From Solirubrobacterales bacterium (lineage in GTDB: Bacteria; Actinomycetota; Thermoleophilia; Solirubrobacterales; 70-9), in the NCBI GenBank assembly GCA_021154855.1, contig JAJKHV010000173.1, forward strand, positions 1 to 49,881: a stretch of DNA of 49,881 nucleotides. Direction: 5' to 3'. Positions 17,809 through 49,881 of the stretch are shown one piece after another. Position 1 is the stretch's first letter. Each line of letters starts with the position of its first letter. The translations under genes were made by a program, and so were the position numbers. The notes beneath the pieces were generated by a model. The model ran no database searches, had not been told where the DNA came from, and saw only the letters and a program-made list of their open reading frames with translations.

Positions 17809-18591
17809 ATGGCTAACCGCAGGGACGAAGAGAGGGAGCGACTCCGCCAGGCCAGGCAGGAACGCGAGAAGAAACAGTCGGGTTCCGAGCGGCGGCGCTT
17901 GCTGATCGGCTACGGCGTGGCCGGTCTCGTCGGCCTTGCCGTGCTCGCCGGGATCGTCGCGATCGTCGTCTCCGCCGCCAACAAGAACGACAGCGGGGAA
18001 TCCCACATCAACCAATCCTCGGGCTCGACCAACGGCGTCCAACCCGACGAACGCTCCGGAACGACGCCGCCGTCGCCGAAGGTGACCAACCTCGACGAGG
18101 CGGCCAAGAAGGCGGGCTGCGACCTGCGCCTCAAGCTTCCCGAAGAGGGCCACAATCACATTCCGCCGACCGCGGCGACGCCCGAATACAAAACCAATCC
18201 GCCCACGTCCGGCAACCACGTCGAACCTCCCTACCAGCAGGCTGACGGCGCCTACAAGGAAATGCCTCAGGAAATCGACTTCGTTCACTCGATGGAGCAC
18301 GGCCGGCTGGAGATCCAATACAGCCCGGGCCTCTCCGAAAGCGCGCAGCTGGAACTGATCGGCCTCTACGACACGATGTACGGGGCCACCTTGCTCTTCC
18401 CGAACGAAAACATGCCTTATGAAGTGGCCGCCACCACCTGGCGCAACCTGATCGGCTGCAACGAATACAAGGGCGCGATCACCCTCGACGCGATCCGCGA
18501 CTTCGGCGCAAAGACCTGGGGCCACGGACGCGAGCCCGTCGCGGGCTTCGCCTTCACCGGCCCGACGCCGGAAGAACCGACGATCAAGTAG
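17809..18591 (+). CDS. Membrane-anchored DUF3105-like protein
   Basis: It has a basic N-terminus and one TM segment (LLIGYGVAGLVGLAVLAGIVAIVV). The stretch YKTNPPTSGNHVEPPYQQADGAYKEMPQEIDFVHSMEHGRLEIQYSP matches my recollection of the actinobacterial DUF3105 signature. This needs an HMM check. Confidence 0.6.
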   Translation: MANRRDEERERLRQARQEREKKQSGSERRRLLIGYGVAGLVGLAVLAGIVAIVVSAANKNDSGESHINQSSGSTNGVQPDERSGTTPPSPKVTNLDEAAKKAGCDLRLKLPEEGHNHIPPTAATPEYKTNPPTSGNHVEPPYQQADGAYKEMPQEIDFVHSMEHGRLEIQYSPGLSESAQLELIGLYDTMYGATLLFPNENMPYEVAATTWRNLIGCNEYKGAITLDAIRDFGAKTWGHGREPVAGFAFTGPTPEEPTIK

Positions 18592-19567
18592 CGCGGTAAG
18601 CGGGGAAGAAGCCGCCGGCCTCGCGGCCCCCGGCAAGACGCAAATACGCCTTTGTGTCGCAGACGATCTCCGAGGTGGACCAGGGCAGCTCGCGGTTGGC
18701 GAAGCCGCGCTTGAACTCCTCCAGCCGGTCACCGGCCGAGATCCCGCCGCCGAGATTGAGCGGCAAACCCTGCTCGGCGGAGAGCTCGACCAGGGAGGCA
18801 ACGACGTTCTTCATCGGCGAGTCGCGCAGATGGGAATCGATGCTGCCGCTCAGGTAGTAGTGGAGGTAGTCATCGCTGCGAACCGCGATCGAGGCCGCGG
18901 CGATCTCGCCGTTGGGAGCTTCGGCGAGGGCGAGCCACGCCTGGCTCGATTCGAGGATTCGATCGAAGTAGGCGGCCGAGAAGAAATAGCGCTCGCCGGC
19001 GCCGGTACGGCGCATCGTCTCCTCGTAGGCGGCGAGAAAGCCGCGGCGCTGGGCTGCGGTCGTCTCGGGGCCTGAAAGCAACTGCAGCTCATAGCCGCGG
19101 CGCAGGTTCTTATTGATCTGGTTGCGATCGCTGGAGCGGCTCTTGGACGGCAGCCTGGGGTCGGCGATCTGGACCACGTTGCGCTCGCTGGCGCCGCTGA
19201 GAGGAGGAGCGCTGAGGGTGTGGCGGATGAAGACGGTGACGAGCCCGGTCGGAGAAAAGTCGACGGCCGCCGGCTCGATTGAGGTCCCGCCAGGCGCTGC
19301 AACCCCCGGATACCCATAGGGCGAGATCGCGTCGAGCTCAGCCCCGGCCGTACGGAACGTGGGTTCGGAGTCGACATTTCCTCTCGTCGGGGAGGGAATT
19401 TCGCGGACGATCAGAGGCGCCAGCAGCTCCACGTCGTCGGTCGCTATGCGCAGGGTGTGGGTGACTCCTTCGGCATCGAAGAACGGGCGCGAGCGGAAGA
19501 ACTCGTCGCTGACCGCCGCTTCGCCGCGATCCTCGATCAACTCGGCCTTGGCGAGCGGCTTGCTCAC
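18584..19567 (-). CDS. FemAB-like / Acetyltransf_6 GNAT-fold protein (aminoacyl- or acyl-transferase of a glycan locus)
   Basis: Sequence reads SSDRNQINKNLRRGYELQLLSG...FLAAYEETMRRTGAGERYFFSAAYFDRI...LHYYLSGSIDSHLRDSPMKNVV...EEFKRGFAN. The family assignment is from memory of FemAB/BioF2-like proteins. Confidence 0.5.
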   Translation of the reverse strand: MSKPLAKAELIEDRGEAAVSDEFFRSRPFFDAEGVTHTLRIATDDVELLAPLIVREIPSPTRGNVDSEPTFRTAGAELDAISPYGYPGVAAPGGTSIEPAAVDFSPTGLVTVFIRHTLSAPPLSGASERNVVQIADPRLPSKSRSSDRNQINKNLRRGYELQLLSGPETTAAQRRGFLAAYEETMRRTGAGERYFFSAAYFDRILESSQAWLALAEAPNGEIAAASIAVRSDDYLHYYLSGSIDSHLRDSPMKNVVASLVELSAEQGLPLNLGGGISAGDRLEEFKRGFANRELPWSTSEIVCDTKAYLRLAGGREAGGFFPAYRAT

Positions 19568-20252: not shown

Positions 20253-20816
20253 TCAGTCCGGGGCAAGACCGTGGCCCGTTATGAGCAGCCAAAGAGTTTT
20301 GAGCAGGATGCGGGCGTCGAGGGTGGTGCTGCGGTGCTCGACGTACCAGAGGTCGAGCTCGATCCGCTCCTCCCAGGGGATGCCGGCTCGACCTTGGACC
20401 TGCGCCCAGCCGGTGATCCCAGGGCGGACGTCATGACGGTGATGCTGGCGGGGCGTATAGGCGACGACCTGGGCCGGAATCGTCGGGCGGGGACCGACGA
20501 TCGCCATCTCGCCGCGAAGGACGTTGACCAGGTTGGGGATCTCGTCGAGCGAGGTTCGACGCAGGATGCGACCGGCGCGGGTGACACGGGGGTCGTCGCG
20601 GGTTACGACGGTGCCGACGCCGATGGGGTCGGAGCCGGGGGTCATCGTCCGCAACTTCAGCATCTCGAACTCCTCGCCGTCCCGACCGACTCGGCGCTGC
20701 CGGTAGAAGATTGGGCCGCGGCTCCCCAGCTTGATCGCGAGCATGCCCAGCGCCATGAAAGGAGATAGGACGATGAGCGCGAGCGCGGCGATCAGGATGT
20801 CGAAGGTTCGAGGCAT
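20253..20816 (-). CDS. Polyprenyl-phosphate sugar-1-phosphate transferase (bacterial sugar transferase, EpsL/WbaP C-terminal type), priming enzyme
   Basis: Sequence reads MPRTFDILIAALALIVLSPFMALGMLAIKLGSRGPIFYRQRRVGRDGEEFEMLKLRTM...DPRVTRAGRILRRTSLDEIPNLVNVLRGEMAIVGPRP. ATG 20816 is preferred over the track start 20921. Confidence 0.85.
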   Translation of the reverse strand: MPRTFDILIAALALIVLSPFMALGMLAIKLGSRGPIFYRQRRVGRDGEEFEMLKLRTMTPGSDPIGVGTVVTRDDPRVTRAGRILRRTSLDEIPNLVNVLRGEMAIVGPRPTIPAQVVAYTPRQHHRHDVRPGITGWAQVQGRAGIPWEERIELDLWYVEHRSTTLDARILLKTLWLLITGHGLAPD

Positions 20817-20924
20817 CAGCTCACTTCCGATGACCCGTGCGGCCAAGCAGATCAAGTGCGCAGGGAGCGTGGCGTGCTCTGCACGCGAGCGACCGAGGAC
20901 GCCGATATGCGCCGGCCACATGTG

Positions 20925-22049
20925 TCATCGGGTCCCTGGGGCCTTCTCCCAGGCCGCTGGAGGGCCGTGGCGGAAACGATCCCAGAGGCCGGCGGCGATC
21001 GAGAGTGTGGTCATCGCGTAGTAGCGGGCGACCCGCAAGAGGCCGAAGCTGAATTGGCCGCCGAGGATCGCCGCCGCGATCAGCGCCAGCTGAAGGCCAT
21101 AGGTCGCGACGTAGACGCCGCCATGGCCTAGCAGAGCGAGGTTTGCGACGAATGCGATCACGTGGAGGAAGGGGGTGAGGTAGCGCAGCAGGCGGTGTGA
21201 GAGAAGCTCGAAGGCGTAGAGGGGCGTGTAGCCGCGCGGGGAGATCATCCGTTCGCCGACGACGATGTCCCAGATGCCGACCATCATCCGCCGCTTGCGG
21301 GCGAACTCGCCCTGCAGGGTCGGCACCATCTTCTCCTCGGCGCAGGCGGCCGGGACGTAGAAGGAGCGCAGCTTGCGCTTGGCCAGGCGGAAGGGGAAGG
21401 AGAGGTCGTGGCTGCCCGAAGGAGCGAGGGGCAGATACGCGCCTGAGCGCACGGCGTAGATCGCGCCGTTGCCGGCCGTGACACCGGCGAGAGCGGACTC
21501 CATCTCGCGCAGCTTCATCTCGTAGCGCCAGTAGGCGCCCTCGAGGTTGTCGCCCTCGGCGTCGAGGAAACTGACCTGACCGCAGACGTAGGCGACTTGC
21601 CCGTCGGCGAAGGGCTCGACGAGGAGGCGCAGGGCCTCCGAGCGCCAGACGCTGTTGGCGTCGGAGAAGGCGAGGATGTCGCCGGAGGCACGCTCGGCGG
21701 CCGCGTTCTGGGCGGCGATCTTGCCGCCGCGGGGGAGCTCGAGCACGACGTCGGCGCCGGCTGCACGGGCGCGCTCGGCCGTTGCGTCGGCAGAGCCGTC
21801 AGAGGCGACGATCAGCTCTAGCCGCTCGCGCGGGTAGTCGAGCGCGAGCGCGTTGGCGACCTTGTCCGCGATCACCTCCTCCTCGTCATAGGCCGCGACG
21901 ATCAGAGAGACGCGCGGCAGGTCCTCGTGGGCGGTCCCGGCCTCTCTCGGGCGGCGGCGCAGGGCAAGCAGGAGGCGCAGGACAAGCGCATAGCCCAGGT
22001 GCGTATAGACGATCAGCGCGGCGCAGATCCAGAAGATCACGGCAAGCAT
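20925..22049 (-). CDS. Membrane-associated family-2 glycosyltransferase
   Basis: Sequence reads PRVSLIVAAYDEEEVIADKV...LELIVASDGSADAT...ILAFSDANS. It has N- and C-terminal TM segments. Confidence 0.85.
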   Translation of the reverse strand: MLAVIFWICAALIVYTHLGYALVLRLLLALRRRPREAGTAHEDLPRVSLIVAAYDEEEVIADKVANALALDYPRERLELIVASDGSADATAERARAAGADVVLELPRGGKIAAQNAAAERASGDILAFSDANSVWRSEALRLLVEPFADGQVAYVCGQVSFLDAEGDNLEGAYWRYEMKLREMESALAGVTAGNGAIYAVRSGAYLPLAPSGSHDLSFPFRLAKRKLRSFYVPAACAEEKMVPTLQGEFARKRRMMVGIWDIVVGERMISPRGYTPLYAFELLSHRLLRYLTPFLHVIAFVANLALLGHGGVYVATYGLQLALIAAAILGGQFSFGLLRVARYYAMTTLSIAAGLWDRFRHGPPAAWEKAPGTR

Positions 22050-33178: not shown

Positions 33179-34693
33179 ATGGAAGCCCGCTCGAGCAGCG
33201 CAATGATCGGCACGGTTCTCTCCGGCCGCTACCGGCTGGAGGCAAAGCTGGGCAGCGGCGGCATGTCGACCGTCTACTTGGCGCGCGATCAGACGCTCGA
33301 CCGGCCCGTCGCCGTCAAGGTGATGCACCGAGAGATGTCCGAGCAGGCCGACCAGCTCGAGCGCTTCCGCCAGGAGGCGCGCTCGGTGGCCAAGTTCTCC
33401 CACCCCAACGTGGTCTCGGTGATCGACGCCGGCGAGGACGGCGGCCACCCCTACATCGTCTTCGAGTACGTCGAGGGGGAAACGCTCAAGCAGCGGATCA
33501 GCCGCAACGGCGCGCTCGACCCGCAGGAGGCGATTGCCTACGCGATTGAGATCGCCCGCGGCCTCTCCGTTGCCCATGCCCGCCAGATGGTTCACCGCGA
33601 CATCAAGCCGCAGAACATCCTGATCGACGCCGAGGGCCGCGCCAAGCTGACTGACTTCGGCATCTCTCGCCAGCTCGAGCAGGACGGGATGACCGCGACC
33701 GGGCGCGTGCTCGGCACGACGGACTACGTCGCGCCCGAGCAGGCGATGGGGCGCAAAGTCGACCCGCGCACCGACATCTACTCGCTCGGTGTCGTCCTCT
33801 ACGAGATGCTGGTCGGCCAGGTCCCCTTCGCCGCCGACAGCCAGGTCGGCGTGGCGATGAAGCACGTCAACGAGGAGCTGCCCGACGTGCAGCGCCGGCG
33901 TCCGGACGTCTCGGCCGCAGTGGCGCTGGTGGTCGAGCGATCCACCGCCAAGGACCCCGGCGAGCGCTACCAGGAGGTCGGCGAGATGATCGACGACCTC
34001 TCGACCGCACTCGAGGTCGAGGCCGCGAGGGCGGGCTCGACCACCGGCGAGGCGACCAGCGTGCTCGACGCGGTGCCGCCGCCGAAGCGCGAGCTCTCCA
34101 GCCGAGCTCGCTGGAGCTGGGCGGCGATCCTCGCCTTGCTCCTGGTCGCCGGCGCGATCTTGCTTGCCGTGCAGCTGATCTCGAACGGCAACCTAGGTGG
34201 TGGTGGCGCCAACAAGGGCAAGGGCAGCCCGGTTTCGGTCAGCTCGGCGACCGACTACGACCCGCAGGGCGACGGCGAAGAGGTGGGCAACAAGGTTGAA
34301 CTCGCGGTCGACGGCGACCCAACCGGGACCGCCTGGGAAACCGAGCACTACGAATCCGACACCTTCGCCGGCACAAAGACCGGCCCGGACCCCGGGGTCG
34401 GCATCTACGTGAAGGCGGCTTCACCGGCCAAGCCGGAGAAGATGATCGTGCGCACGCCGACGAGCGGCTGGGACGCCGAGGTCTTCGCGGCCGCCTCGGG
34501 CCCGCCGGAAGAGCTTTCCGAATGGGGAGAACCGGTCGCCACTGTCGTCGACGCCTCCTCCAGCGAGGAAATCGACCTGAGCGTCGAGGAACCCGCCACC
34601 TACTTCCTGCTCTGGTTCAACAAGGCCTCAGAAGCCCACGACCAGTTCGGCGGCTACCAGGTCGAGGTCAGCGACATCAACCTGCTGCGCTAA
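33179..34693 (+). CDS. Transmembrane Ser/Thr protein kinase with an extracellular galactose-binding/discoidin-like domain
   Basis: Hanks kinase motifs are LGSGGMSTVY, VAVKV, HRDIKPQNIL, DFGIS and APEQ. The TM segment is WAAILALLLVAGAILLAVQLI. The ectodomain reads ATDYDPQGDGEEVGNKVELAVDGDPTGTAWETEHY...YFLLWF. Confidence 0.85.
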   Translation: MEARSSSAMIGTVLSGRYRLEAKLGSGGMSTVYLARDQTLDRPVAVKVMHREMSEQADQLERFRQEARSVAKFSHPNVVSVIDAGEDGGHPYIVFEYVEGETLKQRISRNGALDPQEAIAYAIEIARGLSVAHARQMVHRDIKPQNILIDAEGRAKLTDFGISRQLEQDGMTATGRVLGTTDYVAPEQAMGRKVDPRTDIYSLGVVLYEMLVGQVPFAADSQVGVAMKHVNEELPDVQRRRPDVSAAVALVVERSTAKDPGERYQEVGEMIDDLSTALEVEAARAGSTTGEATSVLDAVPPPKRELSSRARWSWAAILALLLVAGAILLAVQLISNGNLGGGGANKGKGSPVSVSSATDYDPQGDGEEVGNKVELAVDGDPTGTAWETEHYESDTFAGTKTGPDPGVGIYVKAASPAKPEKMIVRTPTSGWDAEVFAAASGPPEELSEWGEPVATVVDASSSEEIDLSVEEPATYFLLWFNKASEAHDQFGGYQVEVSDINLLR

Positions 34694-35744: not shown

Positions 35745-37612
35745 TCTTCTGTTCCGGTTTCCGGTTCGGTCGAGCCGCTCGCCTGCTTGCCGACGACGAC
35801 CGTGACCACAGAGCCCGGCTTCAGCTCCGACCCCGGCGGCGGGAACTGGTCGGTGACGCGGCCGACCTGGGAGGGCACTTCGGTTTCGGATTCGTTCACC
35901 GTCGGCTTCAGGCCTTCGGCGCGCAGGGCTTCCACTGCGTCGGCGCGCAGCTTGCCGATCACGTTCGGCACGGTCGCCTTCGTTTCTCCTTTGGAGACGA
36001 CGATCAAGACCGTTGATCCGGCGGGGAGCTGCGAGCCCGCGTTTGGCTGCTGGCGGATCACCTCGCCGACCGGCTTGGCGCTCTCTTCTTCTTCGACGCT
36101 GGGCGTGAAGCCGCGGCCGCGGATCTGCTGGACGGCAACCGAGCGCTGGGTCCCGGCGAGCACCGGGACCGTCGCCAACTTCGGGCCACTGGAGACCGTC
36201 AGGACGACGCCGGTGCCCCGTGTCGCGGTTTCACCGCCGCTGGGCTTCGAGCGGATGACCAGCCCTTCTTCGACGGCTTCGGAATGCACCCGTTCGACCT
36301 CGGCCTTGAAGCCGGCTTTTTCGAGCTCTTCTTCAGCTTCGGCGACCGTCAGGCCCGCCGTCGAGGGAACCTTGGCGCTGCCGGGACCGGCGCTGACCGT
36401 CAGCATCACCTTCGGCTTCGAGCAGAAGAAGGTGAGGAAGGCGCAGTCGAGCGACGCTTCGTTGGCCGGTGGGGAGGCGGCCGGGTCCTGCTCGAGCACG
36501 GTGTTCTCCGGCGCTTCACGCTCGACTCGCTTTACTTCGCCGACGTCGAAGCCGTCCTGCTGCAGGCGGGCGAAGGCGAGGTTGAGAGATTCGCCGGTGA
36601 CCTTGGGGACCTCCGTGGTGGTGTCGCGGGTCAGCGCAAATCCGACCAGCAGCCCGATCAGCACCGCGGCCGCGACGAGCAGCCAGATCAGCCGGCGGGA
36701 GCTCTCCTCCTCGCCTTCCTCGACCGGCTCCACCGGGGTGGCGACGATTGGCGGCAGCACCGCGAAGGCTGCGGTGCCACCCCCTCCACCCGGATCCTTC
36801 AGCGCCGCGTCGAGGGCGGCGATGAAAGCGTCGGCGCTCTGGAAGCGCTGCCCGGGCTCCTTTTCAAGCGCCCGCATCACCACGGCGTCGAGCGCCGGCG
36901 AGATCTGTGGGTTGATCGAGCTCGGCCGCTGCGGGGCCTGGGAGACCTGTTTCATCGCGACGGCCACGGCCGAGTCCCCCTCGAACGGCACCCGCCCGGT
37001 CAATGCCTCGTAGAGCATCACCCCGATCGAGTAGAGGTCGGAGACCGCCGTCACGTCGAAGCCCTGGGCCTGCTCAGGCGAGAGGTAATGCGGCGTGCCC
37101 ATCACCGAGCCGGCCTGGGTGATCTCCGAGACGCCGGCGCGGGCTATGCCGAAGTCGGTCACGGTCGCCTTGCCGTCGCCGTCGCCGATCACGTTCTGGG
37201 GCTTGAGGTCACGGTGAACGACGCCGTGGCGATGGGCGAAGCGAGCGCCCTCGAGCACCTGACGGATCAGGGCGACCGCCTGCTCCGGCGTCAGGCCCGT
37301 GTCGATCAGCTGCTTCAGCGTGCGGCCCTCGAGGTATTGCATCGCGATGTAGTAGGTGCCATCGACGTCGCCGCGGTCGAAGACGGCGACGACGTTGGGG
37401 TGCTGCAGGCCGGCGGCTGCCTCGGCCTCGCGGCGGAAGCGCTCGACGAACTCACCGTCCTGGGCAAAGCGCGCATGCAGGACCTTGAGCGCAACCCGAC
37501 GCTGCAGGTGCGTGTCGTCGGCAAGCCAGACGTCGGCCATCCCGCCGGACCCGATCCGCTGCAACACCGTGTAGCGCCCGTCGACCACGGACCCCTGCCC
37601 CACCTCAGCCAT
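35741..37612 (-). CDS. pknB: PASTA-domain Ser/Thr protein kinase
   Basis: Kinase motifs are IGSGGMADVW, HRDLKPQNVI, DFGIA and SPEQA. The TM segment is LIWLLVAAAVLIGLLVGFAL. Four PASTA-like repeats follow (VPKVTGESL..., VPSTAGLTVAEAEEELEKAGF..., VPVLAGTQRSVAVQQIRGRGF..., VPNVIGKLRADAVEALRAEGL...). Confidence 0.9.
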   Translation of the reverse strand: MAEVGQGSVVDGRYTVLQRIGSGGMADVWLADDTHLQRRVALKVLHARFAQDGEFVERFRREAEAAAGLQHPNVVAVFDRGDVDGTYYIAMQYLEGRTLKQLIDTGLTPEQAVALIRQVLEGARFAHRHGVVHRDLKPQNVIGDGDGKATVTDFGIARAGVSEITQAGSVMGTPHYLSPEQAQGFDVTAVSDLYSIGVMLYEALTGRVPFEGDSAVAVAMKQVSQAPQRPSSINPQISPALDAVVMRALEKEPGQRFQSADAFIAALDAALKDPGGGGGTAAFAVLPPIVATPVEPVEEGEEESSRRLIWLLVAAAVLIGLLVGFALTRDTTTEVPKVTGESLNLAFARLQQDGFDVGEVKRVEREAPENTVLEQDPAASPPANEASLDCAFLTFFCSKPKVMLTVSAGPGSAKVPSTAGLTVAEAEEELEKAGFKAEVERVHSEAVEEGLVIRSKPSGGETATRGTGVVLTVSSGPKLATVPVLAGTQRSVAVQQIRGRGFTPSVEEEESAKPVGEVIRQQPNAGSQLPAGSTVLIVVSKGETKATVPNVIGKLRADAVEALRAEGLKPTVNESETEVPSQVGRVTDQFPPPGSELKPGSVVTVVVGKQASGSTEPETGTEE

Positions 37613-42130: not shown

Positions 42131-42904
42131 CTACTGCTCGATGTCGAACAGGAAGGTCGTGGTCCCGACGGTGACCTGATCGCCCGGGCTGAGCCGGGTG
42201 GAGGAGACACGCCGGCCGTTCACCTTGATGCCGTTGGTCGAGCCGAGGTCGGCGATCGTCCAGTCGCCCGTTTGCGAGCGGCGCAGCTCGGCGTGGCGGC
42301 GGGAGACATTGGGGTCGGCAAGCACGCACTCGGCCTGCTTGGAGCGCCCGATCGTCGCCCGGGGCCCCTCGAGCACGTAGCGGCGATCGTCGAGCGAGAC
42401 CACCGCCCGGGTCACGACCATTGCTTCCGCGCGCTGTTCAGGATTCGCCGGCGCGGGCGGCTTCTCTTTCACCGCCGAGTAGACCATCGTGTGCCCCTCC
42501 TCGCCCTGCCGCGGCGCCTCACCCTCGCGAACCGGCGGCTTGACCAGGCGCGTCTGGATCCCAAACTCGCCGAGGCGCAGTCGCTGATCGGTCTTGAACT
42601 CGACCGCGGGCCGGGTCAGCAGGTCGTAGCTGCGGCGCCGCGCGTGCTCGAGCAGGTACCCGGAGAGCTCTTGCTCGAGCGAGCGCTCGTAGCCCTCGAG
42701 TTTGGCGCGGTCCTTGCTGGAGAGAAAGACCGTGTACTCGTTGGGGACGTAGACGCGAGCGACGCCCGCCGTCTTATGGGCGTCCATCTCCTTGGCCAGC
42801 TTGCGGGCGAGCTCGACCGGCTGCACCTCGGAGCTGAAGGCGCGGCTGAAGACCCCCTCGACGAGGCCTTCGATGCGACTCTCGAGGTTGCGTAGGACGC
42901 TGAT
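42131..42904 (-). CDS. fhaA: FhaA-like protein (DUF3662-type N-terminal domain plus C-terminal FHA domain); proposed ATC start
   Basis: The FHA part reads ATIGRSKQAECVLADPNVSRRHAELRRSQTGDWTIADLGSTNGIKVNG. The N-terminal domain continues in frame upstream of the track GTG (42826) as ISVLRNLESRIEGLVEGVFSRAFSSEVQPVELA. No ATG, GTG or TTG occurs in that stretch. AAGGAG (42911-42916) lies 6 nt before ATC (42902-42904). Confidence 0.75.
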   Translation of the reverse strand: MSVLRNLESRIEGLVEGVFSRAFSSEVQPVELARKLAKEMDAHKTAGVARVYVPNEYTVFLSSKDRAKLEGYERSLEQELSGYLLEHARRRSYDLLTRPAVEFKTDQRLRLGEFGIQTRLVKPPVREGEAPRQGEEGHTMVYSAVKEKPPAPANPEQRAEAMVVTRAVVSLDDRRYVLEGPRATIGRSKQAECVLADPNVSRRHAELRRSQTGDWTIADLGSTNGIKVNGRRVSSTRLSPGDQVTVGTTTFLFDIEQ

Positions 42905-42966
42905 CGTTGGCTCCTTTTCGCGAGCGAGGCAAGCACTCGGGGTGGCGGTGAACCGGCTGGAATCCT

Positions 42967-43131
42967 AGATGGTGCAACCCCGGAGGACGTGCGACCGGGG
43001 GCGAGCGTAACCAAGCAGGTGAAGGACGCGGGGAGGCAAGATGGTTTTTGCCATTTGGCCGACTGAGGACGCAGAGATGCGCAGTGTTACGCCCGTCATC
43101 CGGGTGCGCGGCCTCCGGGGTTGCACCATCT
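42967..43131. repeat. 165-bp element bounded by 20-bp perfect inverted repeats; its core (43009-43082) is repeated in the gyrB-gyrA spacer
   Basis: The left arm AGATGGTGCAACCCCGGAGG (42967-42986) is the exact reverse complement of 43112-43131. An inner imperfect pairing joins GCGTAAC (43004-43010) and GTTACGC (43086-43092). The core boxes AACCAAGCAGGT, GGA(C/T)GCGGGGAGG and GGCCGACNGANGACNCNGAGATGCGC are shared with 49086-49180. Confidence 0.6.
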
Positions 43132-44126
43132 CAAGGCAGCAGGACGCCGTGACCGGCCGCGAGCCAGGCGCCGAGCACCGCGGCGGCGGCAACCGCGCCG
43201 AGGCGCAGGCGCAGCGAGCGATCGGCGCGGGGAGGATCCTCGGCGAGGCTGTCGAGCGAGCTTTCGATCGCGCCGCCGAGCTCCTCCAGCGGCGGGCGCC
43301 GATCCGGTCGGGTCTGCATGCAGGCATCCACCGCATCGGTGAGCTCGCGGGGAAGATCAGGGCGCAGCCGGCGGAGGGACCGCTGGCGGCCTCCAATCGC
43401 CCGCGCGGTCGCGGCCGGCGTCGAGCGGCGGGTCGGGTGCTCGCCGCTCCAGCACTCGTAGAGCATCAGCGCCAGCGAATAGATGTCGGCCTCGGGGCCG
43501 ACGGTCCGGCCCTCGGCCTGCTCGGGCGCCATGTAGGCGAGGGTGCCGACGACGTCGCCAGGGGCGGTCAGCGCAGCGGCGTCGGTGAGGCGGGCGACGC
43601 CGAAGTCCATCAGCTTGGCGCGCGGCTCGCCATCCTCGAGCACGAGGACGTTCTGAGGCTTGATGTCGCGATGCACGACGGAGCGGCAATGCGCATGGTC
43701 GAGCGCCTCACAGAGATCGGCGCCGATCTCGCCGATCTCGCGGTCGCTGAGCGCGCAGTCGCGATTCAGCCCGGCAAGCGTCTCGCCGTCGACGAGCTCG
43801 GTGACGAGCAGGGCGTTGCCATCCTCCTCGCCCATCTCGTAGAGGGTGACGATGCCAGGGTGATTCAGCCGGGCCGCAGCCTGCGCCTCTCGCATGACCC
43901 GACCTGAACCGTCGTCCCGACCGGATTCGATCGCCTTGACCGCGACCGGGCGCTCGAGCCGCCCATCCCAGGCCTCGTAGACCGTGCCGAAGCCGCCGCT
44001 GCCGATGCGACGCTCGATCAAGAAGCGGTTGAGGACCAGGGAACCGACCACGGCACTTCTCGACTTCGCCGCGAATCCGCTTCCTCCTGCGACATACTCC
44101 CTGCTTCTTGGAGCATTCTTCCGCAA
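43131..44126 (-). CDS. Ser/Thr protein kinase, tail-anchored (TM segment at the extreme C-terminus, no ectodomain)
   Basis: Kinase motifs are IGSGGFGTVY, VAVKAI, HRDIKPQNVLV, DFGVA and APEQA. The C-terminus is LGAVAAAAVLGAWLAAGHGVLLP followed by the stop. The start is uncertain, with an in-frame GTG at 44051. The track start overlaps the divergent gene by 19 nt. Confidence 0.8.
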   Translation of the reverse strand: MRKNAPRSREYVAGGSGFAAKSRSAVVGSLVLNRFLIERRIGSGGFGTVYEAWDGRLERPVAVKAIESGRDDGSGRVMREAQAAARLNHPGIVTLYEMGEEDGNALLVTELVDGETLAGLNRDCALSDREIGEIGADLCEALDHAHCRSVVHRDIKPQNVLVLEDGEPRAKLMDFGVARLTDAAALTAPGDVVGTLAYMAPEQAEGRTVGPEADIYSLALMLYECWSGEHPTRRSTPAATARAIGGRQRSLRRLRPDLPRELTDAVDACMQTRPDRRPPLEELGGAIESSLDSLAEDPPRADRSLRLRLGAVAAAAVLGAWLAAGHGVLLP

Positions 44127-46548: not shown

Positions 46549-49056
46549 CTATCCCTCCGCCAGCTGCTCCTGCCCATCCGGCTCGTCGTTCGAGTCTTCG
46601 TCGATGATCAGGGCGACGGCGCTTACGCAGTCGTCGTCCTTCATGTTCATCACTTTGACACCCTGGGTCGAGCGGCCCATTTGCGAGATTCCACCCGCTT
46701 GGGTTCTCTGCACCATGCCGCTCTGGGAGATGAAGAGCAGGTCCTGGTGCTCGCGAACGATCAGGGCGCCGGCGAGGCCGCCCTTCTTCGTCGTCAGTTT
46801 TGCGGTCAGCACGCCCTTGGTCCCCCGACCCTTGACCGGGTACTCGGCGACCGACGTGCGCTTGCCGTAGCCGTTCTCGGTGACGACGAAAAGCTCGGAG
46901 TCGTCGCGAGCGATGTCCATCGCCAGCACGCGGTTTGGCTGGCCGTTGACCTTGGCCGAGACGTTCATGCCCTTGACGCCGCTGGTGTCGCGGCCCATCG
47001 GCCTCACGACTTCCTCGGAAAAGCGCGAGGCGTGGCCAGACTTGGAGACGAGCAGGATGTCGTCCTCCCCCGAGGTGAGGCGCACCTGGACCAGCTCGTC
47101 GCTGTCGCGGATCTTGATCGCGATGATCCCGTCAGCGCGGATCGGCGTGTTGTAGGCCTTGAACTCGGTCTTCTTGACCAGGCCCTGGGCGGTGGCGAAG
47201 ACCAGGTACCTGTTCTCGCCGAAGTCCCGGGTCGGGATCACTGCGGTGACCTTCTCGCCGTCGCGCAGCGGCAGCACGTTGACCAGGGCTCGGCCTTTCG
47301 AGGTGCGTGATCCCTCGGGCAGCTCATAGACCTTGAGCCTGTAGACCTTGCCGCGGTTGGTGAAGAAGAGCAGGAAGTCGTGGGTCGAGCAGACGTGAAG
47401 GTGCTCGATGTAGTCGTCCTCCTTCATGTCCATCCCCATCACGCCGCGCCCTCCGCGGTGCTGCTGGCGATAGGTCGCCAAGGGCAGTCGCTTGGCGTAG
47501 CCCGAATGGGTGATCGAGATCACCATCTGCTGGTCGGCGATCATGTCCTCGATGTTCATGTCGCCCTCGAAGTGGGTGACTTCGGTGCGCCGCTCGTCGC
47601 CGTAGCGCTTGTCGACCTCGTCAAGCTCCTCGACGATCACGGCGTCGATCCTGGCCGGGTCGCCGAGGATCGAGCGCAGCTCGGCGATCCGCTTGGCCAG
47701 CTCTTCGTGCTCCTCGCGCAGCTTGTCGGACTCCAGCGCGGTGAGGCGGGCGAGGCGCATGTCGAGGATCGCCTGCGCCTGCTCATCGGAGAGCTCGAAG
47801 CGCTCGATCAGACCGGCCTTGGCCGCCTCTGTATCGGCCGAGCCGCGGATCAGCGCGATCACCGCGTCGAGGTTGTCGAGCGCGATCAGCAGTCCCTCGA
47901 GGATGTGGGCGCGGGCCTCGGCCCGGCGCAGCTCGTACTGAGTGCGGCGGATGACGACCTCGCGCTGATGGTTGACGTAGTGCTCGATCAGCTCCTTGAG
48001 GCTGAGCGTCTTCGGCACGCCGTCGACGAGGGCGACCATGTTGACCCCGAAGGTGTTCTGCATCGCGGTCCGCTTGTAGAGCTGATTGAGCACGACCTCG
48101 GGCGGATCGCCGCCTCGCTTGGTCTCGATCACGAGACGCATGCCGGAGCGATCGGACTCGTCGCGCAGGTCGGAGATGCCGGTGATCTTCTTGTCGCGAA
48201 CGAGGTCGGCGATCTTCGTGATCAGGCCGCCTTCGCCGCCCTTCTTGACCATGAACGGCAGCTCGGTGACGATGATCGCGTCGCGGCCGCCCTTGAGCGG
48301 CTCGACGTGAGCGCGGGCGCGGATCCGCACCGAGGCGCGGCCGGAGGCATAGGCGTCGCGAATCCCTTCGGCGCTCATGATGCCGCCGCCGGGGAAATCG
48401 GGGCCCTTGACGTGCTCCATCAGGCCTTCGAGGTCGATGCCGGGGTTGGCGATGTAGGCCTTGACCGCCCCGATCGACTCGCTGAGGTTGTGCGGCGGGA
48501 TGTTGGTCGCCATCCCGACCGCGATCCCGGAAGAGCCGTTGACGAGGAGGCTGGGGAAGCGCGCCGGCAATACCACCGGTTCGCGGGCTTCCTCGTCGTA
48601 ATTGGGGCCCCACTCGACCGTATCCGCCTCGATGTCGCGTAGGAGCTCGGTCGAGAGGTATGCCAGTCGCGCCTCCGTATAACGCATCGCAGCGGGCGGG
48701 TCGTCGTCGATCGAGCCGAAGTTGCCTTGGCCGTCGACGAGCGGATAGCGCAGCGAGAAGTCCTGCGCCATGCGCGCCAGCGTGTCGTAGATCGCGCTGT
48801 CGCCGTGAGGGTGGTACTTGCCCATCACCTCGCCGACGATGAAGGCGGACTTGCGGTAGGACCGGTTCGGCTGCAGCCCCAGGTCGTGCATCGCGTAGAG
48901 CACGCGGCGGTGGACCGGCTTCAGCCCGTCGCGAACGTCGGGCAGCGCCCGGCCGACGATCACGCTCATCGCGTAGTCGAGATACGACGAGCGCATCTCG
49001 GTGGTCAGCTCGCGCTCCTCGATCCGCCCGCCGGTAAGTGCTTCTGCCCCCTCCAT
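46549..49056 (-). CDS. gyrA: DNA gyrase subunit A
   Basis: Sequence reads [33 protein letters not shown]...[34 protein letters not shown]...[10 protein letters not shown] (active-site Tyr). C-terminal beta-pinwheel repeats are present. Confidence 0.95.
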
Positions 49057-49085
49057 CTAAATCACGTCCCTCAAACGGGCGCGGA

Positions 49086-49180
49086 AACCAAGCAGGTCGG
49101 GGGATGCGGGGAGGGTGGCGAGGGGAGCGCACCTGCTGGTGCGTGACCCGAGGAGGCCGACCGAAGACCCCGAGATGCGC
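49086..49180. repeat. Second copy of the conserved core element, inside the 142-nt gyrB-gyrA spacer
   Basis: Box 1 at 49086-49097 matches 43009-43020 at 12/12. Box 2 at 49102-49114 matches 43024-43036 at 12/13. Box 3 at 49155-49180 matches 43057-43082 at 22/26. A local stem joins CCA-GCAGGT (49088-49097) and ACCTGCTGG (49131-49139). An outer pairing joins GCGCGGA...AAACC and GGTTTCCGCGC. Confidence 0.6.
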
Positions 49181-49198
49181 CGGTTTGCAGCGTCCGCG

Positions 49199-49881
49199 CT
49201 AGACATCGAGAAACCTGACCTCCTTCGCGTGCCGTTCGATGAAGGCCTTGCGCGGCTCCACCCTGTCGCCCATCAGGTCGGTGAAAATCTTCTCCGCCAT
49301 CGCCGCGTCATCGATTTGGACCCGCTCCAGGGTGCGGCTTGCCGGGTCCATCGTCGTCTTGCGAAGCTGCTCGGGGTTCATCTCGCCCAGGCCCTTGAAG
49401 CGCTGCATCTTGACCCCGTGGCGGGCCAGGTCCATCACCATCCGGCGCAGCTCGGCGAACGACTCCGCCGTCTTCTCTTTTTGCTCGAGCGAGATCCTGA
49501 AGGGCGGGCGGCCGACCTGGCTCAGCAGCTCTTTGTGCGACTCGACCAGGCGGCGGTAGTCATGCGATTCGAAGAGGCCGGCAGAGAGCTCAAAGGCCTT
49601 GGCCAGCCCGTCTCGGCGGTGCACGGCGCGGACGAGGATCTGGTCGCCGGATTCGGAGACGATCTCGGCGTCGAAGGGCTCCGCCTCGCCGGCATCGCCG
49701 TTGAGCACGTCCTTCACCGCGGCGAGCGAAGTCACGCCGCGGTCGAGGATTTCCGACTCGCCGAGGAAGCGAACCAGCTCGTGACCGAAGTCGGCCTGCA
49801 GTGAGTCCGCCCAGCCCTCGTGCTCCTTCAGGCGGCGGTTGAAACGCTGCCAACGAGTCGCGGTCAGCTTGTGCGTCTCAG
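49199..49881 (-). CDS. gyrB: DNA gyrase subunit B, C-terminal part (5' end outside the window)
   Basis: The frame is open to the window edge. The C-terminus reads [69 protein letters not shown]. The track lists only the part from an internal GTG (49735). Confidence 0.9.

Follow-up and report, generated by a model that had tools for sequence, protein, structure and literature searches.

What is the 165-nt stretch, bounded by long inverted repeats, that separates a Ser/Thr kinase gene from fhaA in a Solirubrobacterales bacterium (assembly GCA_021154855.1)? The stretch lies within 49,881 nt of contig JAJKHV010000173.1, referred to here as the window, and an initial annotation made from the sequence left three kinds of candidate: a structured non-coding RNA, a dispersed element resembling miniature inverted-repeat transposable elements (MITEs) or repetitive extragenic palindromic (REP) sequences, and a cruciform or protein-binding site in the origin-proximal region. 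The second of these proves right in kind. The stretch, designated copy 1, belongs to a previously undescribed, Solirubrobacterales-wide family of stem-loop repeats and is not a gene in its own right; more than 100 copies occur across many Solirubrobacterales genomes, with presence/absence differences between relatives. The family is probably a REP- and MITE-like non-autonomous dispersed element that acts through a strand-specific single-stranded fold. A literature search in which the core sequence itself was included found no description of it.

A stem-loop between a kinase gene and fhaA

The genes of the locus, identified with Pfam, are all on the minus strand in the order gyrB, gyrA, intervening genes, the Ser/Thr kinase, copy 1, fhaA, fhaB, a PP2C phosphatase and RodA. 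The kinase gene (Pfam Pkinase) occupies 43131-44126, and its TGA stop codon (43133-43131) shares one base with an arm of copy 1. The parts of the element and the two stop codons at its ends are as follows.

42967-43131, plus strand (best-folding, G-rich; antisense to the kinase and fhaA): whole stem-loop of copy 1, based on fold energies and the covariance model
42967-42986, plus strand: outer left arm, perfect over 20 nt; its first bases, (T)AGATG, are the subfamily terminus and the next ~13 nt are copy-specific
43112-43131, plus strand: outer right arm, the exact reverse complement of the left; the kinase stop codon, reverse-complemented, starts on its last base
42987-43010, plus strand: inner left arm, ACGTGCGACCGGGGGCGAGCGTAA..., kept in subfamily members at non-orthologous sites (12/14 identity to L072; related to L080 and L179)
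43011-43036, plus strand: conserved 5' core block, CCAAGCAGGTGAAGGACGCGGGGAGG, nearly invariant over 63 short-class copies
43039-43056, plus strand: apical hairpin, AGATGG TTTTTG CCATTT, free in sequence across the family and outright replaced in several copies
43057-43082, plus strand: conserved 3' core block, GGCCGACTGAGGACGCAGAGATGCGC, which supplied the pattern for the genome scan
43083-43111, plus strand: inner right arm, AGTGTTACGCCCGTCATCCGGGTGCGCGG, conserved within the subfamily
43131-43133, minus strand: kinase TGA stop codon in use, at the proximal junction of copy 1 and absent from empty orthologous sites
42965-42967, minus strand: TAG that is the kinase stop codon of element-free relatives, located in the window at the distal end of copy 1, inside a conserved CTAGGAT motif

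Both direct reading and a repeat finder show that the sequence at 42967-42986, AGATGGTGCAACCCCGGAGG, is repeated as a perfect reverse complement at 43112-43131. With mismatches allowed, the pairing reaches 32 nt at 88% (42967-42998 and 43100-43131), with all four mismatches located in the inner 12 nt, the part that is conserved within the subfamily. Farther inside, the repeat finder returns the nested GCGTAAC/GTTACGC stem (43002-43011 and 43086-43095), and the ATGG-TTTTTG-CCAT apical hairpin is confirmed as well. The plus strand folds into a single rod at -102.6 kcal/mol (z = -10), a stability that none of 200 shuffled sequences attained, and the minus strand folds at -85.8 kcal/mol. The initial annotation's description of perfect terminal inverted repeats with nested complementarity, and of a right arm that starts at the kinase stop codon, is thereby borne out, the overlap amounting to one base. 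Its negative observations hold as well: ARAGORN calls no tRNA gene in the window, and no clear target-site duplication was found at copy 1. The 20-bp perfect repeat is itself a composite, however, made up of a subfamily terminus and a copy-specific middle segment.

Two possible coding roles for copy 1 were considered and rejected. Neither a 29-codon minus-strand open reading frame (ORF) nor a plus-strand Shine-Dalgarno-ATG arrangement within the conserved GAGATGCGC is conserved as a reading frame, with hairpin swaps and indels breaking the frame in both cases.

A near-invariant core between copy-specific arms

Two further copies of the element are located in the window.

49069-49202, plus strand: copy 2, long size class, in the gyrB-gyrA spacer (38.7 bits, E = 3e-9; aligned with 37 further long-class copies)
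20821-20936 (element proper ~20832-20925), plus strand: copy 3, short size class (114.9 bits, E = 3e-32)

The stem of copy 2 spans from the gyrB stop codon (TAG; plus-strand CTA at 49199-49201) to a point just upstream of the gyrA ribosome-binding site. The initial annotation had described a 74-nt core of copy 1 as repeated in this spacer, and two conserved blocks do match (39 nt at 82% and 26 nt at 85% by BLAST within the window), but they flank a non-homologous apex of a different length. Copy 3, which was missed in that annotation, emerged from two weak colinear BLAST matches near 20.85 kb and from mismatch-tolerant pattern searches. It extends from the stop codon (20925-20927) of the upstream minus-strand gene to the ATG (20816) of a sugar-transferase-like gene. 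The mechanically called ORF for the latter (20253-20921, minus strand) runs through copy 3, and the real start is probably the ATG at 20816-20814 behind GGAAGTGAG. All three copies sit in intercistronic gaps of minus-strand genes in one orientation, each starting at the stop codon of the upstream gene. A covariance model trained on 63 short-class copies recognises copy 1 with 63.6 bits (E = 9e-17, span 42989-43107) and finds exactly three copies in the window, the next match having E = 0.03.

A scan of 185,579 species genomes with a pattern derived from the 3' block, GACNGARGACNCNGAKATGCGC, matched at least 120 stretches. Those listed are nearly all metagenome-assembled genomes labelled Solirubrobacterales, Solirubrobacteraceae, Conexibacteraceae or Thermoleophilia. 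Both core blocks are present in 107 copies among the matches listed, and the family statistics rest on these copies (individual loci carry L numbers). A few haloarchaeal, Phenylobacterium and Chitinophaga matches, which are without the 5' block and look like coding sequence, were set aside. The haloarchaeal L004, L014, L026, L063, L068 and L108, together with L053, L055 and L069, contain only the 22-nt pattern in what appears to be a conserved coding region and are not family members. Because the covariance model finds about five unselected extra copies per ~700 kb of flanking DNA, tens of copies per genome are to be expected.

Read along the G-rich strand, the family consists of a copy-specific arm, (R)CC, AAGCAGRTCAAGGACGCAGGGAGCG, an apical hairpin, GCGACCGAGGACGCCGAKATGCGCC, GG(Y) and the complementary arm. 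The core measures 66-70 nt in the short class (63 copies aligned) and 87-92 nt in the long class (38 copies aligned), the latter having in addition an arm of the form GGGGAGCGCAC-loop-GUGCGUGACCC and an inner stem peculiar to the class, GAAAACC...GGUUUGCAG. In the window, copies 1 and 3 are of the short type and copy 2 of the long type. The two halves of the core are mutually non-complementary, and the core is consequently no degenerate palindrome. At the apex only the hairpin form is needed: the hairpin covaries (C-G in 48, U-A in 12), and in L072, L080 and window copy 1 its place is taken by unrelated hairpins. In L012, L112, L079, L057 and L092, other small GC-rich hairpin modules (e.g., GGCCGAAACGGGGA...TCTCCCGGCTTCGG) are nested in or beside the apical loop, which suggests further repeat families with an insertion preference for loops.

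A third subfamily, comprising window copy 1, L179, L072, L080 and L082, is defined by ~30 nt of conserved inner arm. The window copy, L072, L080 and L179 all open with TAGATG and close with CATCT, giving the shared termini TAGATG...CATCT(A), and these termini and the inner arms are common to non-orthologous sites. Between inner arm and terminus lies a middle segment of ~13 nt that has nothing in common from copy to copy; in the window copy and L072 it is nonetheless perfectly self-complementary. In the short class there is a weak terminal consensus, CTGAGG...CCTCAG, and the median ungapped arm over the 107 copies is 16 bp. The family thus has a near-invariant, asymmetric core that occurs in at least three subfamilies, enclosed by an outer stem that is copy-specific but kept complementary and that usually pairs the stop codon of the adjacent gene.

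Constraint on the fold of one strand

Compensatory base-pair changes exceed controls. For every P1 pair of the short class, 11-28 sequences differ at both partners. Of the cells in the long class, 94.6% are paired, compared to 85.2% in column shuffles (0/500 as high) and 25-49% when the partners are slid, and 17 pairs are changed on both sides versus 10.0 +/- 1.3; none of the 500 shuffles reached any of five measures. Covariation is also evident inside the long-class core, where pair 40-105 is C-G in 26 copies and U-A in 11, pair 36-109 is G-C in 19 and U-G in 10, and pair 64-82 is G-U in 37 of 38. Folded single-stranded DNA (ssDNA) would give the same signal as RNA.

The constraint is specific to the G-rich strand, irrespective of the orientation of flanking genes. 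Within the arms, G-U pairs outnumber A-C mismatches 59:21 (p = 2.5e-5), and the excess has the same sign in (-,-) contexts (24:10), (+,+) contexts (9:1) and convergent contexts (21:8). In 95 of 107 copies the G-rich (plus) strand forms the more stable fold (z-scores of -5.6 versus -3.7; p = 3e-15). Consensus fold energies of the two alignments are -31.6 and -39.3, compared to -13.5 and -23.8 for their reverse complements, and wobble pairs available only to the plus strand outnumber those available only to the minus strand 72:27 and 85:9. Mutation bias, whether from transcription- or replication-linked deamination or from G-T-specific repair, was considered as the source of the G-U excess and rejected: it predicts a sign flip with orientation, and none was seen. 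Because the sign is the same in all gene contexts, the strand asymmetry belongs to the element.

These data bear directly on the suggestion of an origin-enriched cruciform or double-stranded DNA site at which a replication or chromosome-organising protein would bind. The density of copies is suggestive of such a role, at three per 50 kb in the gyrBA-proximal window versus about five per 700 kb in unselected flanks, and the sequence conservation of the core is specific. A cruciform or duplex site would, however, penalise both types of mismatch equally, whereas G-U is tolerated on one strand only. Copies also lie beside many unrelated genes along chromosomes, and their placement is tied to stop codons. 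The origin-site proposal is accordingly not supported, and a double-stranded site is highly improbable as an account of the family.

Placement at stop codons

Gene orientation around the copies was assigned with a codon model trained on Pfam-confirmed window genes, which was right for 84 of 84 test segments and replaced a crude caller, based on GC content at third codon positions, that had given contradictory orientations. Copies lie between co-directional genes in 58 cases, between convergent genes in 36 and between divergent genes in only 4. Of the co-directional cases, 45 are (-,-), with the G-rich strand running antisense to the genes, and 13 are (+,+), where it is the sense strand (p = 3e-5). 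In 84 of 107 copies a gene on the opposite strand terminates within or at the right arm, and its reverse-complemented stop codon sits 3-5 or 12-20 nt from the core. Pairing with the other arm takes in two or all three bases of the stop codon in 60 of 81 copies, and the partner triplet tracks the identity of the stop codon (TGA-TGA 26, TAG-TAG 8, TAA-TAA 3). Stop usage at copies matches the background (63/28/9% versus 61/29/10%).

Upstream genes at recurrent sites are unrelated and have no functional theme; from inspection of their C-termini, they presumably encode SecA, a YchF-type GTPase, homoserine dehydrogenase, cytochrome oxidase III, a universal stress protein and gyrB. The contig positions of copies are scattered. 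The copies are thus confined almost entirely to the 3' ends of genes, many lying precisely at the stop codon, and the genes that they follow are unrelated housekeeping genes.

A GC-rich hairpin immediately following a stop codon, in a family enriched in convergent and nearly absent from divergent spacers, has the appearance of an ordinary intrinsic terminator, and a palindrome at the end of a single kinase gene might in principle arise by chance. A U-tract (at least five T in the 10 nt after the stem), however, follows 0 of 107 copies on the plus strand and 6 of 107 on the minus strand, and simple promoter and terminator scans, the latter covering 42700-43400, return no consensus promoter or terminator at the locus. 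A core of 68-92 nt common to more than 100 copies cannot be due to chance and is not needed by a terminator. The initial annotation had reserved chance for the case that no further copies existed; more than 100 were recovered, and 0 of 200 shuffles fold as well. A terminator or chance palindrome is already refuted as a sufficient explanation, and the probability left to it is next to negligible.

Transcripts and known RNA classes

Many metatranscriptome assemblies from soil, rhizosphere and sediment contain the core. In four runs it is found at a word depth of 2-3, within contigs of 97-323 nt that continue into different flanks. The RNA evidence consists of unstranded Logan contigs; the core is carried on longer RNAs, or else reflects DNA carry-over, and there is no evidence of an abundant discrete RNA.

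Rfam gives no match in the whole window at the gathering score and none in 42850-43250 at E <= 10; for 49000-49260 at E <= 10, the only match is a spurious, low-complexity one to a long non-coding RNA (E = 2.9). No Rfam family therefore fits the element, an assignment that the initial annotation had held in prospect. Comparison by hand to self-cleaving ribozymes and riboswitches (hammerhead CUGANGA, twister and ydaO) also yielded no consistent match, most copies having CCGAGGA rather than CUGAGGA. A stand-alone small RNA gene, either 6S-like, as had been proposed in outline, or another regulatory RNA, would account for the long closing stem with internal loops, the strong fold z-scores and the covariation. 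It would not be expected in tens of copies per genome with differing stems, wedged at stop codons, or to be freely lost between relatives. With neither an Rfam match at E <= 10 nor a conserved promoter or terminator, and with the core seen only in low-depth longer contigs, such a gene is scarcely credible here.

Gain and loss at orthologous sites

Occupancy differs among relatives at many sites. Filled and empty orthologous pairs include L019/L074, L066/L050, L113/L029, L115/L079 and L021, L084 and L106 versus L008, in all of which the C-terminus of the protein is unchanged and a direct duplication is missing. The gyrB-gyrA spacer is filled in the window and in L073 and empty in L112, and copy 3 is absent from the orthologous site of L032. 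Conversely, L032 is syntenic with the window over ~18-21 kb and carries a copy whose counterpart in the window (18534-18645, near 18.55 kb) is empty. No consistent direct target-site duplication was found in the pairs L019/L074, L066/L050, L113/L029 and L115/L079 or in the window versus L121-L134. Where orthologous sites are both filled, different size classes occupy the same site in 10 of 31 pairs.

The kinase-fhaA site was followed through 80 orthologous fhaA loci from metagenomes (FhaA 81-97% identical), 71 of which include the kinase end and could be scored. Kinase and fhaA are 227 nt apart in the window, compared to 60-62 nt in the closest relatives. At empty sites the junction reads ...CTGCTGCC G TAG GATTCC (...CTG CTG CCG TAG GATTCC), and in the window it reads ...CTGCTGCC T TGA GATGG...CCATC TAG GATTCC (CTG CTG CCT TGA GATGGTG...CACCATC TAG GATTCC), the extra DNA amounting to ~166 nt (42968-43133). 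It follows from these exact junctions that the kinase now stops at a TGA at the near end of the element, with the TAG of its relatives at the far end.

One of the 71 scored loci, L179 (FhaA identity 83%), contains a full element. This copy (164 nt, 67.7 bits) is oriented as in the window, shares the TGAGATG...CATCTAG termini and has homologous inner arms; its G-rich strand folds at -115.6 kcal/mol versus -84.5 kcal/mol for the other strand. The outer arms of the window copy and L179 (165 and 164 nt) differ at most positions, and each copy is self-complementary. About seven loci have remnants: an arms-only hairpin is left in L188 and L132, and ~20 nt homologous to the distal arm of the window copy lie between TGA and TAG in L170, L141, L145, L127 and L139. 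A further 34 loci are clean empty sites, and at least 62 are without the element. The empty allele is also found in soil metagenome run X4 at a depth of 12.8, and no contig from a public run covers window positions 42953-43122. A recent insertion, the reading first drawn from 97%-identical empty relatives, was dropped in view of the full copy in L179 and the ~7 remnants. Because of these same loci, occupancy of the site is taken to be old and patchy, through either repeated loss or spread by recombination. The initial annotation's further idea, that the element replaced the tRNA gene found upstream of fhaA in mycobacteria, is not supported: there is only a short spacer in the 71 orthologous loci, and ARAGORN finds no tRNA in the 29 scanned.

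Relatives thus differ through gain and loss of copies, a single site being found full, arms-only, as a footprint or empty, and copy 1 is dispensable because most relatives are without it. Two more specific scenarios are suggestive. The core may have inserted into a pre-existing terminator hairpin, as in the single case of L021 versus L008, or the outer arm may have been copied from the local flank, as in the distal arm of the window copy versus the spacers of L170 and L141; deletion remnants and subfamily-conserved termini explain both equally well.

Where both orthologous sites are filled, identity amounts to 87% in the core, 83% in the coding flanks and 67-71% in the arms. Because random, non-orthologous cores from different genomes are also 87% identical, the core is at a constraint ceiling. 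Constraint that exceeds that on neighbouring coding sequence and is equal throughout the order is one of several features consistent with a host-selected structured RNA module, in which the core serves as a platform for a lineage-specific RNA-binding protein or RNase and dispersal is secondary. Such a module may provide a 3'-end or intercistronic processing or stabilising signal, or its G-rich strand may form a barrier that stops or cleaves antisense transcripts entering the gene at whose stop codon the element lies. The genuine covariation with conserved G-U pairs inside the core, the compensatory changes that window copy 1 and its orthologue in L179 have undergone in place, the orientation of the folded strand with its 3' side towards the 3' end of an opposite-strand gene in most copies, and the presence of the core in many soil metatranscriptome assemblies all point in this direction. 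Single copies are nevertheless dispensable, as the kinase-fhaA loci and the empty gyrB-gyrA spacer of L112 illustrate, and there is no functional theme among upstream genes. The element has no promoter of its own, and within operons the folded strand is antisense, where no transcript is expected; the metatranscriptome signal is 2-3x deep and lies inside longer unstranded contigs, with DNA carry-over possible. A host-selected RNA module is a serious rival, though on balance unlikely, and a dispersed element acting through a folded single strand remains the favoured reading.

Comparison with known repeats

The genomic behaviour of the family matches that of REP sequences and bacterial interspersed mosaic elements (BIMEs), of enterobacterial repetitive intergenic consensus (ERIC) sequences and of Correia-type elements; its design does not. 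In Proteobacteria, REP sequences, together with the REPINs and BIMEs that they form, are recognised by the REP-associated tyrosine transposase (RAYT) as a folded single strand of one polarity. Like these, the family consists of small, multi-copy extragenic repeats at the 3' ends of genes, with the same convergent-enriched, divergent-poor placement (36 convergent, 58 co-directional, 4 divergent) and with mosaic or nested variants. The likeness includes transcription with neighbouring genes, in the present case from unstranded metatranscriptome contigs for which DNA carry-over is possible. A REP sequence, however, is a conserved imperfect palindrome of 20-40 nt with a 5' GTAG, features that are missing here, where the conserved centre is 68-92 nt long and non-palindromic with non-complementary halves. 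The lineage, Thermoleophilia, differs too, and the copy number is apparently in the tens rather than the hundreds.

MITEs such as the Correia/NEMIS elements of Neisseria and those of the IS630/Tc1 type are also non-coding, 100-170 bp in length, bounded by terminal inverted repeats, dispersed and presence/absence polymorphic. They sometimes supply stop codons or other signals to neighbouring genes, and they have internal-deletion variants. The family shares their multiple dispersed, polymorphic copies. In MITEs, however, the terminal repeats are the conserved part, whereas here most of the arm sequence differs between copies, only 6-7 terminal bases (TAGATG/CATCTA) are common to one subfamily, and there is no consistent direct target-site duplication. 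L072 is the sole copy flanked by CTAG on both sides. The target of IS630 is CTAG/TA, which the TAGATG...CATCT(A) termini and the CTAG flanks of L072 recall. No parent insertion sequence with matching ends was seen, in that none of the 8-kb loci around copies shows core blocks separated by an ORF.

ERIC sequences, or intergenic repeat units (IRUs), of enterobacteria are ~127-bp imperfect palindromes that are intergenic, transcribed and conserved across genera, with indel size variants at fixed points. High cross-genus conservation and size variants are likewise seen in the present family. The two have no sequence relationship and belong to different phyla, and ERIC sequences are conserved over the whole palindrome, with neither embedded stop codons nor a variable closing stem. 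Mycobacterial interspersed repetitive units (MIRUs) are actinobacterial intercistronic repeats with ends overlapping the stop and start codons of operon genes. The family is similarly intercistronic and overlaps the flanking stop codon, but it consists of single long hairpins with a conserved core, in contrast to the 40-100-bp direct tandem repeats with short ORFs of MIRUs.

In integron attC sites, the recombinogenic folded strand is antisense to the upstream ORF, and the sites lie directly 3' of ORFs with sequence-free complementary arms. The likeness would be one of working principle only, the family having stop-adjacent sites in which the fold of one strand is constrained. In attC sites the outer R''/R' boxes are conserved and it is the centre that varies, the reverse of the family, which has no integrase or cassette array and is flanked by core housekeeping genes. 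The attC boxes (RYYYAAC/GTTRRRY) are also missing: the GCGTAAC/GTTACGC pair of copy 1 misfits the consensus and is not common to other copies. For a fold-dependent site on one strand directly 3' of ORFs, attC and REP-RAYT are probably the nearest functional analogies.

The fhaA start region and neighbouring kinases

The fhaA gene that follows copy 1 is without a canonical start codon. The candidate start is an ATC (42902-42904, minus strand) located 6 nt after a perfect AAGGAG; an in-frame TAG lies upstream, with no ATG, GTG or TTG between, and the Pfam FhaA_N match begins at residue 4 of the ATC-start reading. Relatives (L121-L200) have ATC in 27 cases, ATT in 3 and ATA in 1 behind the Shine-Dalgarno sequence. 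A further 33 fhaA loci have the arrangement TAGGAT-N6-ATC, suggestive of a leaderless mRNA with AUC as its first codon.

The TAGGAT directly upstream of fhaA (gene sense; plus-strand ATCCTA at 42962-42967) is conserved in 72 of 78 orthologous loci, and copy 1 abuts it. Its TAG doubles as the kinase stop codon in element-free close relatives. Actinobacterial -10 elements have the form TANNNT, which TAGGAT would fit; a sigma-70 consensus scan does not call it upstream of fhaA.

Variant members of the family occur in the fhaA-fhaB spacer of three relatives (L185:2288-2393, L200:2291-2388 and L123:971-1087), all in the sense orientation, scoring 36-42 bits with a reduced 5' P2 block; the window has none there. 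Two paralogues of the kinase at 43131-44126 are encoded at 33185-33820 (plus strand) and 36995-37594 (minus strand), with 40-44% identity by tblastn, and at least three Ser/Thr protein kinases surround the fhaA-pstP-rodA cluster.

Mechanism and implications

In the favoured mechanism, the conserved core would be recognised in trans, and the element would be propagated or maintained as a folded single strand of one polarity, either as ssDNA, as in REP-RAYT, the ends of IS200/IS605 and integron attC, or as RNA. Copies would persist only where they are harmless, i.e., behind stop codons, and the preferred orientation inside operons would place the weaker-folding strand in the mRNA. At the kinase-fhaA locus, the element supplies the TGA that now ends the kinase, and its hairpin, which is very stable on the mRNA strand (~-86 kcal/mol), separates the kinase from the conserved TAGGAT box and the 5' region of fhaA.

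Several observations weigh against a mobile, non-autonomous element of this kind. No transposase or other mobilising gene was identified, RAYT not having been searched for genome-wide; no recent identical copies at two sites were seen, and active mobility is inferred from patchy occupancy only. The greater conservation of the core (87%) than of its coding flanks (83%) at orthologous sites, and its equal similarity between random copies, amount to a degree of order-wide conservation that is uncommon among selfish repeats and in keeping with host function or concerted evolution. A conserved centre with variable arms is the reverse of MITEs and REPs, and a consistent target-site duplication is missing. 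In 45 of 58 co-directional contexts the strand that folds runs antisense to the upstream gene, and, should genes follow the direction of replication, it is not the lagging-strand template either, the opposite of what an IS200/IS605-like mechanism predicts. Finally, the compensatory evolution in place between the window copy and L179 argues against a purely selfish element.

It is possible, though doubtful, that the family is a functional, order-wide folded-strand module of a new type and not decaying selfish DNA, with the core read by a dedicated Solirubrobacterales factor and the closing stem rebuilt at each site to pair the stop codon of the host gene. Acting on the strand antisense to the preceding gene, such a module may be a guard against antisense or convergent read-through, or a strand-specific recombination or priming site. 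In a related proposal, the family may move by a new mechanism that renders its two arms identical, at insertion or later, through templated synthesis or conversion of one arm by the other, which would explain middle-arm segments that are different between copies and perfectly complementary within a copy, as in the window copy and L072.

Solirubrobacterales are abundant soil Actinomycetota that are almost unstudied molecularly, and the family gives them a REP/ERIC-like system of inverted design, with a conserved centre, a site-specific stem that takes in the stop codon and a folding strand that is mostly antisense to host genes. The elements create or displace stop codons, as in the kinase gene described here, and separate cistrons by very stable hairpins. 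They also break short-read assemblies and mislead ORF callers, and they could serve as strain-typing markers. If the core has a dedicated protein partner, the family would be a tractable new case of single-strand, structure-guided recognition.

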